The notes under the pieces were generated by a model, which was given only the letters and a program-made list of their open reading frames with translations, did no database searches and was not told the origin of the DNA. This document shows positions 9,897-57,622 of a stretch of DNA of 64,000 bases, piece after piece. This DNA is from Promethearchaeota archaeon (GTDB lineage: Archaea; Asgardarchaeota; Lokiarchaeia; Sigyniarchaeales; SOKP01). Both the position numbers and the translations under genes were made by a program. How positions within the stretch are numbered: the first letter of the stretch is position 1; every line of letters begins with the position of its first letter. Location of the stretch: positions 8,617 through 72,616 of the forward strand of contig JBHLNZ010000002.1 of assembly GCA_048941015.1 (NCBI GenBank), read 5' to 3'.

Positions 9897-10613
9897 TTAT
9901 AATTTGGCTAATAATTCTTCCTTCTCATCTAAACCTAATAATTTGAATTTAGCATCTTCTTTTAATATGAAGGCTACATCACACGTATTTTTACTTAAAT
10001 TATCGCCCATTAATTCTTTTAAAGTTCTTAATGGTAATAACTTTAATTCTTCATCACTAATATCTTCTTTATAATTTTCTTCAAGAAAAGCCCTAGCTTC
10101 TGCTGCACCTGACCCTATAGCAAAGGCTTTATATCCCCATAAAGCTCCACTTGGATCTGTTAAAAATAAAGACGCTTTACCATCTGAATCAATTCCAGCT
10201 ATAAGAAGACTCACTCCAAAAGGTCTAACACCCGCATTTTGAGTAAATAACTGAAGATATTCACAAATATTTAATGTACTGTCTTTTACAGATATTTTCT
10301 CATCATAGTTAAGTAAATTAACTTGCGCTTGAACTCTAGCCCTTTCTACTAACACACGAGCGTCAGCAGTAAGTCCGGCAATAGCCACACCAACATGATC
10401 GTCAATTTTAAAAATTTTCTCTGAACCAATAACTTCTTGAAGTTCAGAGCTCTTTTTTTCGACGGCAAACACAACAGAATTATTATTCCTACATACAATA
10501 GCCGTCGTACCTCTACGAACCGCTTCAATTGCATATTCTACTTGAAAAAGACGCCCTTCTGGTGAAAATTGGGTTATTGCCATGTCATAACCTCTTCCTG
10601 CTTGCTGGAACAT
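9897..10613 (-). CDS. psmA: proteasome subunit alpha
   Basis: YDMAITQFSPEGRLFQVEYA signature. AAGGAG Shine-Dalgarno about 8 nt upstream of the ATG. Confidence 0.92.
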   Translation of the reverse strand: MFQQAGRGYDMAITQFSPEGRLFQVEYAIEAVRRGTTAIVCRNNNSVVFAVEKKSSELQEVIGSEKIFKIDDHVGVAIAGLTADARVLVERARVQAQVNLLNYDEKISVKDSTLNICEYLQLFTQNAGVRPFGVSLLIAGIDSDGKASLFLTDPSGALWGYKAFAIGSGAAEARAFLEENYKEDISDEELKLLPLRTLKELMGDNLSKNTCDVAFILKEDAKFKLLGLDEKEELLAKL

Positions 10614-10777: not shown

Positions 10778-11158
10778 TTAACTCCATGCTACTTTATTTA
10801 TAAAAATAGACCACTCTAAGATAATCATACCTTCGTCTCTGGTATGAGCAATGAGGTAATCTCCCTCTTTAGTAACAGAACCTACAATATTTCCTTTTCC
10901 GCCCACGATATTTTTAGCGGCTAATTGAATTTCATCATTTTTTAAAATCGCGAATCTGCTATCTTGAAATTTAAGAGCAGATTCTTTTTTTTTCCATGCA
11001 TTAAGAATTCCTTTAGCTTCTTCTGAGGTTATTTTGAAATCTTCAGATTTAAATATAATATTCCCTTCACTATTTAACAAAAATACCTCTTCTACCCCTT
11101 CAAATTCCCTAAGTTGCTCAACAAGATGAAAAAATCTCTTCTCTTCCACTATTTTCAC
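10778..11158 (-). CDS. small alpha/beta protein, profilin-like (alternative: roadblock/LC7 fold)
   Basis: 126 aa. The pattern VEEVFLLNSEGNIIFKSEDF ... LKFQDSRFAILKNDEIQLAAKNIVGGKGNIVGSVTKEGDYLIAHT follows the profilin layout: a G.kY.vlr.d-like strand pair followed by a Gly-rich loop. Confidence 0.4.
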   Translation of the reverse strand: MKIVEEKRFFHLVEQLREFEGVEEVFLLNSEGNIIFKSEDFKITSEEAKGILNAWKKKESALKFQDSRFAILKNDEIQLAAKNIVGGKGNIVGSVTKEGDYLIAHTRDEGMIILEWSIFINKVAWS

Positions 11159-53325: not shown

Positions 53326-53787
53326 TTATCCTTGTTGCTTTCTTCTACTAAATAATTCCTTTAATTCCCCCATTATTGCACCTCTTAATGTTAAAGGGGT
53401 AGCAGGCCGAGCAGGACCAGGTCCTCCCGGAGGGCCGCCAGGTGGAGGTGGAGGACCGCCAGGTGGACCACCAGGTGGTGGCAGAGGGCCGCCAGGTGGA
53501 CCACTAGATGGAGGAGGAGCGCTAACAGGTGCAGATGGAGTGGATACCATAGGGGTAGCTCCAGCACCTCTTGTCTTTAAAGCTGCCACGTCATTATTCA
53601 TAGTATTGATTCTAGATTCCAGATTGGAAATTTTTTGATTCAAAGTTGCTAAGGATTGATCGACCAAATCAGGAATCCTTAAAATCATCATCATCATTTT
53701 TTCGACAATGTCTCCAAACGCATTTAATTTTTCTTCAATTGGGGCTCTTCGTGTCTCTTGCATAAAATTTGCGAATTCTTCTGCCAT
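53326..53787 (-). CDS. coiled-coil protein with polyproline/glycine tract and short C-terminal amphipathic helix
   Basis: 153 aa. N-terminal heptad region. Residues 78-131 read TPMVSTPSAPVSAPPPSSGPPGGPLPPPGGPPGGPPPPPGGPPGGPGPARPAT. C-terminus is LTLRGAIMGELKELFSRRK. Confidence 0.65.
   Translation of the reverse strand: MAEEFANFMQETRRAPIEEKLNAFGDIVEKMMMMILRIPDLVDQSLATLNQKISNLESRINTMNNDVAALKTRGAGATPMVSTPSAPVSAPPPSSGPPGGPLPPPGGPPGGPPPPPGGPPGGPGPARPATPLTLRGAIMGELKELFSRRKQQG
53395..53556 (-). repeat. GC-rich imperfect tandem codon repeat encoding PPGG/PPPP tracts
   Basis: Reiterated ccgccaggtgg / ggaccaccaggtgg units on the plus strand. This is the only strongly GC-rich non-tRNA stretch in the window. 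Confidence 0.8.
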
Positions 53788-53932: not shown

Positions 53933-54565
53933 TTAACTTGATTTGTTAACTGAATTTTTTAAAATTATCCATAAATTATCAAGTTCATCTCTTACTTCTA
54001 TAAATTGGTGGATCTTTTTAAGAAGAACATCTCTCGCCCGATCAAAATCTCTTTGAAAATCGTTTAATTCGGCTTCTAAAAGCTTCATTTTATCGCCTTC
54101 CATTAAGTCATTTTTTTTCTTTTCAACTGTTAGAGCTTTTTTAATAACAGCAGCTCTTTTGTTTGCAACTTCAATTAAAGCATCGGCTAATTCTTCTTTC
54201 TTTTGAATGAAATATTCCTTATTTACAATTAAATTTTTGATAGCATCAATATAGCCATTATTAACTTTAATATATTCTTCATTTTTTCGAATGATATCAT
54301 GAAATAGATTTACTTCTTCATCTTTTACATTAGCTCTTTTCTCTCTTACTAAAGTTTGCATTTGTTTTAAAACATCACGAAAAGATCTATTAAGCATATC
54401 TCGTTCGACATTAGCTTTAGTTAAATCATCAGCATACTTTTTTTGAGAACTAATTAGAGCGCTTTGGGCTTTTGCCAATTTTTTAATTTCTTTAACTAGA
54501 TCTTTTTCCATACTGGCTAATTCCAGTTCATCTTCATGGGTGATTATAGGACTCATTTTAGACAT
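53933..54565 (-). CDS. coiled-coil protein (210 aa), family unassigned
   Basis: Almost entirely helical, heptad-like charged sequence with an ATG start. Confidence 0.55.
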   Translation of the reverse strand: MSKMSPIITHEDELELASMEKDLVKEIKKLAKAQSALISSQKKYADDLTKANVERDMLNRSFRDVLKQMQTLVREKRANVKDEEVNLFHDIIRKNEEYIKVNNGYIDAIKNLIVNKEYFIQKKEELADALIEVANKRAAVIKKALTVEKKKNDLMEGDKMKLLEAELNDFQRDFDRARDVLLKKIHQFIEVRDELDNLWIILKNSVNKSS

Positions 54566-55703: not shown

Positions 55704-56777
55704 TTAATTTTTATATCGTAAAATAGCAACAAGAGATCCTAAGTCTTTAATTTGTTTCCCCGTTGGATGATCACTACTGAGAATATGAATTTTACCTCCC
55801 TGATTTTCAACATCAGTCAGAATCTTCTCAATTTTGAGTTTTTGATCTTTGGTTGCCCCTCTAATTAAAATATCGACACAAAATAATTCCTTAATTGCTC
55901 CCTTTTGGGCAGCTTTAGATACTTCATTGGAACCAATAGCAATCATATCAGGATCAGTCCCTAATAACATAAGAATTTCTTCAATTTTTTCAGACTCTTG
56001 TAAAATTCTTATATTCTTTTTTATTGAGATTAAATCTTTTGATTTTAGAGTTTCTAAAATTCCACTTTCGGTCCCTGAACTTGCATGAATACTCTTTATT
56101 ATTGAGAGATATTCTGGATTGGATTTTTCCTTAATGTATTTGATAAAAAGATCACGTGTATTGCCAGGTCCACATATTACTATTAAATTTATTTGAATAT
56201 CATTTGATTTTTCATCAATAATTTTCTTTATAATAGAAAAAAATTCTTCTAAAGCCTTTTTACGATGTGATTGTTCATATCTTTTTCCAGGAATCGTTTT
56301 TTTTACTGTAGCTATCTTATTATGACTGAAATTCGTTATTAACTCTATAGTAGATAAACCTGTTTCAATGGCAATCATAAGAATTATAAAATTACTCTCA
56401 AATTTAGAGGATTCTTTTAAACGTTTTAATTCACTTCTAAGCCATTCTTCCTTAATAATTGTTAATGTTTGTCCAATTTCTATATTAAAAGTATGATAAG
56501 TTCCGAAGCTAACAAAATCTTCTGGACCTTCTAAAATTGTTCCTTTAACTCTTAACCTATTTGAAAATTCATGAAACGATACTGCCTCTACTTTCAATTT
56601 TAGTGTCATGGGTTTTCTTTCTCCTTTTGATCCTTCTTTTAAGACAACTCTCCTATGGGTTCGAGCTATAACTTTATCATTTTCTGAAATTAAGTTGTAA
56701 AGCGTCCAAAGATCGTTCAGACTCTCCACTTTAACAGTGATCTCTTGAGTTTTTTTGTTAATTTCCAGAATTTTCAA
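55704..56777 (-). CDS. pelA: Pelota (Dom34) mRNA surveillance / ribosome rescue factor
   Basis: N-terminal VKVESLNDLWTLYNLI, central and eRF1-like C-terminal domains (VCGPGNTRD-like ICGPGNTRD). TTG start. Confidence 0.88.
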   Translation of the reverse strand: MKILEINKKTQEITVKVESLNDLWTLYNLISENDKVIARTHRRVVLKEGSKGERKPMTLKLKVEAVSFHEFSNRLRVKGTILEGPEDFVSFGTYHTFNIEIGQTLTIIKEEWLRSELKRLKESSKFESNFIILMIAIETGLSTIELITNFSHNKIATVKKTIPGKRYEQSHRKKALEEFFSIIKKIIDEKSNDIQINLIVICGPGNTRDLFIKYIKEKSNPEYLSIIKSIHASSGTESGILETLKSKDLISIKKNIRILQESEKIEEILMLLGTDPDMIAIGSNEVSKAAQKGAIKELFCVDILIRGATKDQKLKIEKILTDVENQGGKIHILSSDHPTGKQIKDLGSLVAILRYKN

Positions 56778-56911
56778 ATTTTATACCAATCTTAATAGAT
56801 GATTTGCGATAATTAAAAGTAGTGATGTATATTTCAAAAGGTTAATTTTGTCTAAAATAAGATAATTTGAAGATAATAAAAAAATAAATAAAAAAGCTGT
56901 TAACAATTAAA

Positions 56912-57064
56912 TTATTCATTTGCTCCAAGAGCTTGCTTTACTTTTTCCAACTCTTCCATACGTTTCTTTTTCTCTTCTTCGCGGCGTTTTAATTCCTCCT
57001 CATCTACTTTTTGTAGACTGACTCCTTTCTTAATCTCTTCCTGCAATTCTTTATCTATAGGCAT
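56912..57064 (-). CDS. 50-aa micro-protein with WH2/beta-thymosin-like motif (below ORF-track length cut-off)
   Basis: The ATG at 57064 through TAA (ending at 56912) translates to MPIDKELQEEIKKGVSLQKVDEEELKRREEEKKKRMEELEKVKQALGANE. AGGTG Shine-Dalgarno sits 7 nt upstream. A TATAAAAATATA box lies about 45 nt upstream. Confidence 0.5.
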   Translation of the reverse strand: MPIDKELQEEIKKGVSLQKVDEEELKRREEEKKKRMEELEKVKQALGANE

Positions 57065-57166
57065 TCCTCAACACCTTTTTTTAATAAAATTTGAGAATCT
57101 GTTAATATATTTTTATACCAATATTAAAAAAATCTTTATTTTTAAGTTTAAGTTTATAGAAAAACT

Positions 57167-57622
57167 CTAAAATTTTAATTCCATCAAATAAGCGCTTTCT
57201 TTTTGACGATAATACTGTTCAATTTTACCTATTATACGGAAATTGAATTTCTTATATAAATCTATTGCACTTACATTTGTAGTTTTAACATTTAAAATAA
57301 TCCTTTTAACTCCTTTTATTTTTTTAATCCGTTCTAGCGTTTTGTTTAAAAGAAGTGAACCATATCCTAGTTTTTGAAATTTCTTTTGAATAACAAAATT
57401 AATTATATTTACTCTGTCTTCATCATCTTTTATAGCAATGACGAAACCAATGATCTTTTTACTTAAGTTATTGTCTTCGATTTTTAAAAATAAAGTATTT
57501 TGTAAGATTAGTTTTTTTATTGTTTCTCTTGAAAATGCATCTTCTCTAAACATTTTTTTTTCTATTTTGATAAGTTGTTCTAAATCATTCAATTCAACAC
57601 GTTCAATCATCATTAGAATCAA
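57167..57622 (-). CDS. GNAT N-acetyltransferase (RimI / N-terminal acetyltransferase-like)
   Basis: Acetyl-CoA motif QKKFQKLGYGSLLLNK, about 150 aa. The start is uncertain because of a 20-nt overlap with the upstream gene. Confidence 0.75.
   Translation of the reverse strand: MILMMIERVELNDLEQLIKIEKKMFREDAFSRETIKKLILQNTLFLKIEDNNLSKKIIGFVIAIKDDEDRVNIINFVIQKKFQKLGYGSLLLNKTLERIKKIKGVKRIILNVKTTNVSAIDLYKKFNFRIIGKIEQYYRQKESAYLMELKF

Follow-up and report, generated by a model that had tools for sequence, protein, structure and literature searches.

The DNA analysed here is a 64,000-nucleotide (nt) stretch of a Promethearchaeota archaeon genome (contig JBHLNZ010000002.1, positions 8,617 to 72,616; hereafter the window). 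On its minus strand lies a 50-codon open reading frame (ORF) that is a real, strongly conserved small gene under strong purifying selection. The product belongs to a new, previously undescribed Asgard family centred on Lokiarchaeota/Promethearchaeota. This micro-protein is a two-part unit, a WH2-like element joined to a conserved charged helix, and not a bare WH2. Its best single explanation is that it binds actin monomers, a tentative reading that we place just short of an even call; the main grounds for it are the fusions to profilin, the tandem arrays and the conservation of the motif. The WH2 interpretation given in an initial annotation, made from the DNA letters alone, is thereby partly supported. 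The coding sequence and its two parts are located as follows:

56912..57064, minus strand: coding sequence of the micro-protein, stop codon included (sequence and translation, 254 homologous clusters, ratio of nonsynonymous to synonymous divergence, dN/dS, 0.013)
57002..57058, minus strand: WH2-like segment, residues 3-21, with an amphipathic helix (I3/L7/I11), G14 and the extended L17-Q-K19-V20-D21
56921..57001, minus strand: charged amphipathic helix EEELKRREEEKKKRMEELEKVKQALGA, residues 22-48 (AlphaFold2 model, conservation)

Translation from the ATG at 57064 to the TAA at 56914-56912 gave a protein of 50 amino acids (aa), MPIDKELQEEIKKGVSLQKVDEEELKRREEEKKKRMEELEKVKQALGANE, in agreement with the coordinates, strand and length first proposed. 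In a search of 5.8 billion proteins we observed 254 homologous clusters, all of 48-51 aa; the best 120 of the 254 were 73-100 % identical to the window peptide, came from Asgard metagenome bins and carried 'hypothetical protein' as their sole name. No Pfam or NCBIfam entry matched the family, and searches of Pfam, NCBIfam and the PDB with the single peptide gave no meaningful match. The conservation and substitution checks suggested in the initial annotation both came out in favour of a gene. The frame was uninterrupted in 26 of 26 related loci. In comparisons with 20 relatives, synonymous divergence (pS) was 0.65-1.08, which means that these sites are largely saturated, and nonsynonymous divergence (pN) was 0.05-0.17; with the closest relative, L008 (pS 0.48, pN 0.01), dN/dS was 0.013. 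Mean pairwise differences at codon positions 1, 2 and 3 were 6.0, 2.2 and 16.7, the pattern of purifying selection with a dominant third position. In the relatives the micro-protein was 72-96 % identical, as compared with 59-82 % for the neighbouring Pelota and 45-70 % for the neighbouring GNAT acetyltransferase; the radical S-adenosylmethionine (SAM) genes nearby were also less conserved.

These data bear directly on the possibility that the ORF is open by chance only, in AT-rich DNA between genes (the G+C content of the window is ~27-30 %), and is not translated. Its shortness, its low-complexity Lys/Glu composition and the absence of any annotation beyond 'hypothetical protein' would suit such a frame. 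In contrast, a chance frame does not account for so many clusters of constant length, for the low dN/dS and the third-position bias, for a conservation that exceeds that of the flanking housekeeping genes, for a conserved Shine-Dalgarno sequence, or for the presence of the same unit inside longer proteins. We consider this explanation effectively refuted, its probability being close to nil. An RNA gene was also considered and rejected, because Rfam had no match in the region and the codon-position pattern is of the coding type.

The following elements around the micro-gene resemble expression signals:

57072..57076, minus strand: Shine-Dalgarno-like AGGTG, 7 nt 5' of the ATG (sequence; relatives)
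57130..57160, minus strand: A/T-rich promoter-like region corresponding to the conserved ACTTATAAATAAATTCTATTATAA, just past the stop codon of the upstream GNAT gene
56874..56895, minus strand: oligo-T tract TTTTTTATTTATTTTTTTATT, 17 nt past the stop codon (sequence)

The AGGTG that had been read as a Shine-Dalgarno sequence 7 nt before the ATG is present at 57076..57072, and an AAAGGTG-like element at -14..-8 is kept in most of 21 relatives. A TATAAAAATATA box proposed at the same time is also present, at 57117..57106 (-53..-42), but among the relatives only the closest one shares it. Aligning by eye the 90 nt upstream of the gene at 22 loci revealed a conserved A/T-rich element that differs from this box, with the consensus ACTTATAAATAAATTCTATTATAA at about -85..-60; it is promoter-like and may serve as the promoter. 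The oligo-T tract looks like an archaeal terminator and could act as one. A 41-codon, TTG-start hydrophobic ORF at 56781..56906 (minus strand), in the spacer between the micro-gene and the Pelota gene, overlaps this tract; it is probably spurious, and the gene calls of the related contigs L001-L007 show nothing there.

An AlphaFold2 monomer model of the micro-protein, built on a 45-sequence alignment, reached a predicted local distance difference test score (pLDDT) of 91.4 and consisted of a helix at residues 5-13, a non-helical stretch at 14-21 (GVSLQKVD) and a second helix at 22-48. The pLDDT was 88-92 for the first helix and the coil, and 96-97 for the second helix. With Foldseek, the 50-residue model matched nothing in the PDB, which is unsurprising for a pair of helices. 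In a deliberately diverse family alignment, with identities as low as 42 %, L17, R35 and E38 never vary, and conservation reaches at least 90 % at G14, E31, K32, K34 and L39 with the distant members included. In the N-terminal half, L7, I11, G14 and K19 are conserved in at least 90 % of the sequences, and I3 is also conserved. The C-terminal charged helix, whose family-wide form is REEEKKKRxEELxKxKxAL, is kept in all of the fusion proteins described below, and the C-terminal third of the micro-protein carries a short hydrophobic seam (M36, L39, V42, L46), as read from the sequence. The description of the ORF as 'essentially' a WH2 motif did not hold, given that the better-conserved half is this charged helix, which lies outside any WH2 definition.

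Eukaryotic WH2 motifs contain a three-turn amphipathic helix, often a Gly, and then an extended L-[KR]-[KR]-[VT]. The conserved N-terminal residues L7, I11, G14, L17, K19 and V20 of the micro-protein are WH2 signature positions, and a helix of about three turns with conserved hydrophobic positions (I3/L7/I11) is present in the AlphaFold2 model at residues 5-13. Within the LKK[TV]-type part, L17 never varies, the conservation of K19 reaches at least 90 %, position 20 is V or P, and position 18 is Q or E in most members; LKKV itself is present in several of them (P0137, P0139, P0148 and P0171). The consensus L-x3-I-x2-G-x2-L-[KR]-[KQ]-[VT], to which the peptide had originally been fitted, agrees in layout but not strictly, residue 18 being Q. 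When [KRQ] was allowed at both positions, the relaxed pattern was found in 27 family ORFs and in no decoy of a 320,664-aa six-frame translation of the window and 35 related loci.

A profile of the full family, searched against the PDB (177,635 sequences), had as its top match a tandem WH2 construct of N-WASP (3m3n_W) with an E-value of 0.0085, which is a sum over three in-register repeats; N-WASP 2vcp_D was also among the matches. The in-register alignment sets ELQEEIKKGVSLQKVDEE of the family against LLDQIRQGIQLKKVEQ of N-WASP. When 5,736 segments from a six-frame translation of Asgard DNA were scored with a hidden Markov model (HMM) built from WH2 sequences of WASP, N-WASP, WAVE, WIP and MIM, nearly all the top ranks went to family ORFs. 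Scores of family members with this HMM were 19.9 bits for P0148, 16.2 for L022 and 14.6 for P0137. P0148 is one of several members that carry the textbook WH2 sequence ELMNEIQQGVKLKKV. Reciprocally, the family HMM scored WAVE1 at 10.9, MIM at 9.0 and actobindin at 8.3 bits, and the best decoy at 5.8. An exhaustive search of 1.84 billion representative proteins with the family profile retrieved, at E 2e-5, P0164, a 169-aa protein from a 774-bp metagenome contig in the ENA that has three canonical-looking WH2 repeats of the type LKNEIKKGPVLKKTMSVDKSSP. Its PDB matches are N-WASP and WIP WH2 domains only. P0164 is the sole WH2-type protein outside the family that the profile retrieved, and it may be of protist origin; a search with it for annotated eukaryotic WH2 proteins returned three near-identical unnamed sequences only. 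Taken alone, the sequence statistics are equivocal as to WH2 identity.

The domain context is the most informative evidence on this question. The same family profile search found the unit in longer proteins, among them P0128 (497 aa, metagenome-assembled genomes of Promethearchaeota), which consists of about eight to nine tandem units with the repeat helices LLGEI, LMDEI and IMSEI followed by LKKID, LQKIS and LDKPD. In P0161 and P0169 the unit comes after leucine-rich repeats (LRR) and before a RING-like zinc ribbon or a ribbon-helix-helix (RHH) domain; P0159 has an RHH domain and then the unit; and in P0144, P0162 and P0172 one to four units lie between an N-terminal and a C-terminal domain. 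No cytoskeletal genes were seen in the genomic surroundings of P0128 or of two of the proteins with a profilin fusion.

The architecture profilin, linker, unit and C-terminal domain forms a family of ~35 clusters, in which the N-terminal domain is an Asgard profilin. Pfam Profilin was detected in 28 of 32 of these proteins (best score 26.3 bits, cut-off 25), their PDB sequence matches were solely 5yed, 5yee, 5zzb and 5zza, and the N-terminal domain matched the profilin-like ORF of the window by BLASTP with E 4e-7. When the AlphaFold2 model of P0206 was compared by Foldseek, the best matches were the Odin and Loki profilin/actin complexes (E 3.5e-10 to 3e-7), and profilins of Thor, yeast and plants ranked next. 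The unit of these fusions, PKLREELMKGLIDFFKKGGKLEKPDExDIKRREKERKQRMEELEKVLxALE, is clearly homologous to the micro-protein; its segment GLIDFFKKGGKLEKPD shows the canonical pattern of hydrophobic-hydrophobic-x-x-hydrophobic, then G, then L-x-K, with the WH2-type double hydrophobic in the helix GLIDFF. In the P0206 model the unit is likewise helix-coil-helix (148-163, 164-170 and 171-194), with low pLDDT in this region and values below 50 in segment 162-166. Two metagenomic proteins, P0226 and P0227, join a profilin-fold domain of the same subfamily to the winged helix of a TrmB-type transcription regulator (PF01978) and lack the unit; it is unusual for a transcription factor to carry a sensor domain with the profilin fold.

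Classical contexts of WH2 in eukaryotes are tandem repeats (Spire, Cobl), the combination with LRR (leiomodin) and the proximity to profilin-recruiting sequences (WASP/VASP). The profilin fusions, the LRR fusions and the tandem array are arrangements of the kind typical of eukaryotic WH2 proteins; such contexts, with actin-regulatory modules and tandem repeats, occur in the paralogous units and not in the window protein itself.

The same architectures can also be explained if the unit serves Asgard proteins more generally as a helical adaptor or oligomerisation module and has a partner other than actin, for instance the profilin fold, regulators that bind nucleic acids or a small GTPase system. 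On its own, the 50-aa form would then regulate those interactions or compete with them. This accords with the disparate domains to which the unit is joined (profilin fold, LRR, RING-like zinc ribbon, RHH), with the fusion of the same profilin subfamily to a TrmB winged helix-turn-helix, and with the confident, compact two-helix model (pLDDT 91), which differs from the typically disordered WH2; in addition, the seam formed by M36, L39, V42 and L46 could pair helices. However, the strictly conserved G-x-x-L-x-K-[VP]-D turn together with the amphipathic helix matches WH2 geometry, some members have a textbook WH2, tandem arrays and LRR/polyproline combinations are typical of actin-binding WH2 proteins, and no search points to an alternative partner. 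We judge this adaptor function to be unlikely, although it is one of the two main rivals of actin binding.

A further explanation arises from the genes that surround the micro-gene. Its immediate neighbours are:

57167..57622, minus strand: RimI-like GNAT N-acetyltransferase, directly upstream (TIGR01575)
55704..56777, minus strand: Pelota, a ribosome rescue factor of the aeRF1 family, directly downstream (Pfam eRF1_1/2/3)

The GNAT scored 82.4 bits with TIGR01575 (rimI; cut-off 86.4). Both genes belong to a block with the order NTP-transferase, radical SAM, GNAT, micro-gene, Pelota, radical SAM, 210-aa coiled-coil protein and polyproline protein, which is kept in 20 of 20 species-level relatives among the matches listed. 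The order GNAT, micro-gene, Pelota, radical SAM extends over orthologues from 96 % to ~45 % identity (L001-L026, L031, L034, L035), and the GNAT adjoins the micro-gene in L001-L026, L028, L031, L032, L034 and L035. In L028 it is adjacent but convergent and Pelota is absent, and in L029 and L030 neither of them adjoins the micro-gene. Two side observations concern the assignment of these loci. L025 (DATKTW010000134.1) contains the complete Asgard block yet is titled 'Candidatus Nanopelagicaceae bacterium', and it is probably mis-binned in a bacterial genome. Near-identical proteins were labelled Hod-, Hermod-, Thor- and Heimdallarchaeota by one submitter; we judged these labels unreliable and did not use them.

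This synteny is the main argument for a function linked to translation or acetylation, in which the micro-protein would act with its neighbours, either as a small partner or substrate of the RimI-like GNAT or as a ribosome-associated factor connected with Pelota-dependent rescue or hibernation of ribosomes, the WH2-like pattern being coincidental in a Lys/Glu-rich helix. Apart from the depth to which the gene order is retained, the GNAT adjacency survives a changed orientation and the absence of Pelota in L028, the enzyme is RimI-like, and the best-conserved element of the micro-protein is the C-terminal charged helix and not the WH2-like part. N-termini of the type MAP, MTP, MSP or MPI are, by NatA-type specificity, typical acetylation substrates after removal of the Met; those of the micro-proteins are of this kind, so the GNAT may acetylate them. 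Nevertheless, spacers and signals are separate for each gene, and a promoter-like element and an oligo-T tail belong to the micro-gene alone; the L029/L030 lineage has the micro-gene without these neighbours; and the family has neither TMA7 similarity nor any ribosomal or translation family match in Pfam or NCBIfam, the PDB giving only a weak, chance-level match to aEF-1beta (1gh8_A, E 0.19-0.42). Similarity to TMA7 was rejected because neither Pfam TMA7 nor the PDB matched and the human and yeast TMA7 sequences scored negative with the family HMM. A function with the neighbours also leaves the profilin fusions, the LRR fusions and the tandem array unexplained, and the status of acetyltransferase substrate is compatible with actin binding. 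We regard it as quite improbable, more so than the adaptor function.

Other ORFs of the window are also of interest with regard to actin:

53326..53787, minus strand: 153-aa protein with a coiled coil and polyproline, in the same conserved gene block
10778..11158, minus strand: profilin-like ORF (Pfam, PDB)

The existence of both had been pointed out in the initial annotation and was confirmed. The polyproline protein has an N-terminal coiled-coil-like region and a (GPPGGPP)n tract, and it is syntenic in all the relatives. Its C-terminus, P-x-SLRGAIMGELKxLF-x-[KR]R, where the x after LF is A or S, is invariant and shares the pattern LRxxhMxxLxxhF (h, hydrophobic) with the helix on the N-terminal side of the unit in its fusions to profilin, LRR and RHH; this pattern matches nothing else in 320 kaa of decoys. 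We take RGAIMGEL to be comparable to the RGALLDQI of WASP-family WH2 helices. The succession of polyproline and a WH2-type helix resembles a WASP/VASP-like arrangement, and the 153-aa protein is a candidate profilin- or actin-recruiting factor. Between the radical SAM gene and this gene lies a 210-aa Lys/Glu-rich coiled-coil protein (53933..54565, minus strand) that matches no family and is syntenic, with 48-93 % identity in the relatives. The profilin-like ORF scored 21.5 bits with Pfam Profilin, under the cut-off of 25, and its best PDB sequence match was 5zza_P, of an Odin profilin/actin complex, at E 3e-5; Thor profilin (7pbh_A) was also listed. This ORF adjoins a gene similar to the proteasome alpha subunit (9897..10613).

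Several observations weigh against actin binding through a WH2-like element. The most conserved stretch of the micro-protein is the 27-residue C-terminal helix (REEEKKKRMEELEKVKxALG), which has no WH2 counterpart. Position 18 is Q/E and not basic, and in two of the three members seen of a distant orthologous branch LxKV is replaced by LGSV/LGGV (P0147/P0163), with LAKV in the third, P0160, while the C-terminal helix is retained. Neither Pfam WH2 (PF02205) nor thymosin matched the window peptide, 40 family members or 32 profilin-fusion proteins at E <= 10. This profile is insensitive to single short motifs, since even the canonical-looking P0164 reaches only 11.9 bits against a cut-off of 23.1. 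A profile of the N-terminal half found N-WASP WH2 in the PDB at E 0.6-1, the chance level at which Alba and a fluorescent protein also appear. The likeness to a WAVE-type WH2 put forward at the outset stands above background for the family, but the window peptide itself is within the decoy range: with the WH2 HMM it scored 5.7 bits (E 3.6), below the best decoy (6.6 bits). The WH2 seeds of this HMM and of the reciprocal tests were assembled by hand, in part from PDB sequences. As to context, the unit is fused to RHH and RING-like domains too, the profilin subfamily concerned also has fusions to TrmB and so may fall outside the classical actin-binding profilins, and the conserved neighbours are a RimI-like acetyltransferase and Pelota instead of cytoskeletal genes.

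If the micro-protein does bind actin monomers, the following mechanism can be proposed; its binding geometry and its role in sequestering or hand-over are what we infer from the features described above. The gene would be expressed as a monocistronic unit and yield a 50-residue two-helix protein. Its N-terminal helix would occupy the hydrophobic cleft that separates subdomains 1 and 3 in the lokiactin monomer, and the LxKV stretch would run along the actin surface in the manner of a WH2. The long C-terminal helix could extend up towards the pointed face and subdomain 2 and cap the monomer, as a sequesterer would, or alternatively it could be a rigid spacer or contact element. The stand-alone micro-protein would then buffer actin monomers or hand them over, in competition or exchange with profilin, and the repeated or fused module (tandem, profilin-unit, LRR-unit) would recruit or align several monomers.

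A broader hypothesis is that the family is the archaeal ancestor or sister of eukaryotic WH2. The stand-alone form would be an abundant G-actin-binding micro-protein of Lokiarchaeota, and the module would have formed, before eukaryogenesis, a WASP/VASP/Spire-like toolkit for monomer delivery and nucleation that comprises the tandem arrays, the profilin fusions, the LRR fusions and the neighbouring coiled-coil/polyproline protein. This is possible, although we think it somewhat unlikely. If true, monomer sequestration, delivery and possibly nucleation would be added to the pre-eukaryotic actin toolkit, and WH2, which is among the most widespread eukaryotic actin-binding elements, would have an archaeal origin. 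Even if the partner is not actin, the gene encodes an unannotated micro-protein that is more conserved than Pelota across Lokiarchaeota. Its length falls below most ORF-length cut-offs, and we expect detection by tryptic proteomics to be hard, as the Lys/Arg-rich sequence would give mostly very short peptides.

Among the closest known systems is the two-domain gelsolin of Asgard archaea, whose WH2-like motif is LRRV in Thor, LKHV in Heimdall (given as LRRT in the structure description) and LVDV/LKDV in Loki, and lies on actin in crystal structures (PMC9433394, PMC7444086, bioRxiv 10.1101/2025.11.30.690169). The Loki variants show that actin binders of this lineage tolerate non-basic residues in the motif. 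Unlike the WH2-like segment of the micro-protein, the gelsolin motif is a four-residue linker between two gelsolin domains that is not preceded by an amphipathic helix, and we found no sequence relationship between it and the micro-protein family. To date, no other WH2-like element has been described from Asgard archaea: in the literature searched on WH2 or thymosin with Asgard and lokiactin, no stand-alone WH2 or thymosin-like archaeal protein was found, in keeping with the initial remark that no annotation of a WH2-only micro-protein in archaea is known. According to a 2025 preprint on Asgard cell motility, lokiactin seems to be regulated mainly by profilins and gelsolins, and its main text lists no such small protein in the lokiactin co-immunoprecipitation (bioRxiv 10.1101/2025.11.30.690169).

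Arcadin-2 of Crenarchaeota offers a functional analogue of the role proposed here, being an archaeal helix-based actin binder: with a short helix at its C-terminus it occupies the hydrophobic groove of crenactin and keeps monomers sequestered in a thymosin beta-4-like way (PMC5173319). It is nevertheless dissimilar in sequence to the micro-protein, and its gene is a neighbour of the crenactin gene in the arcade cluster; its binding orientation is opposite to that of thymosin beta-4, and it belongs to a different phylum and acts on a different actin.

The beta-thymosins (thymosin beta-4, ciboulot) are similar to the micro-protein in being free peptides of 43-50 residues that are essentially all motif, with a central LKKT-type segment between an N-terminal and a C-terminal helix; they are alike in layout alone. 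By analogy, monomer sequestering and exchange with profilin may be shared. The parallel drawn in the initial annotation holds for size and helix layout but not for sequence: similarity to beta-thymosin (PF01290) was rejected, with no Pfam match and with thymosin beta-4 scoring -0.3/-8.8 bits on the family HMMs. Moreover, the helix-to-L spacing of the micro-protein is of the WH2 type (I-x2-G-x2-L) and not of the thymosin type, and its C-terminal helix, much longer than that of the thymosins, begins right after LxKV-D with no extended linker in between.

The WH2 domains of WASP/N-WASP, WAVE, WIP and MIM are likewise among the closest known systems. In contrast to them, the micro-protein is archaeal and stands alone, does not reach the PF02205 threshold, has E/D and not a second Leu at the first helix position and Q/E in place of the first basic residue of LKKV, and has a conserved charged helix of 27 residues directly after the motif. 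It has in common with them a segment of ~20 residues in which a three-turn amphipathic helix is followed by a Gly and an extended L-x-K-V and, as in WH2 proteins, paralogous units of the family occur in tandem or beside polyproline and LRR modules.

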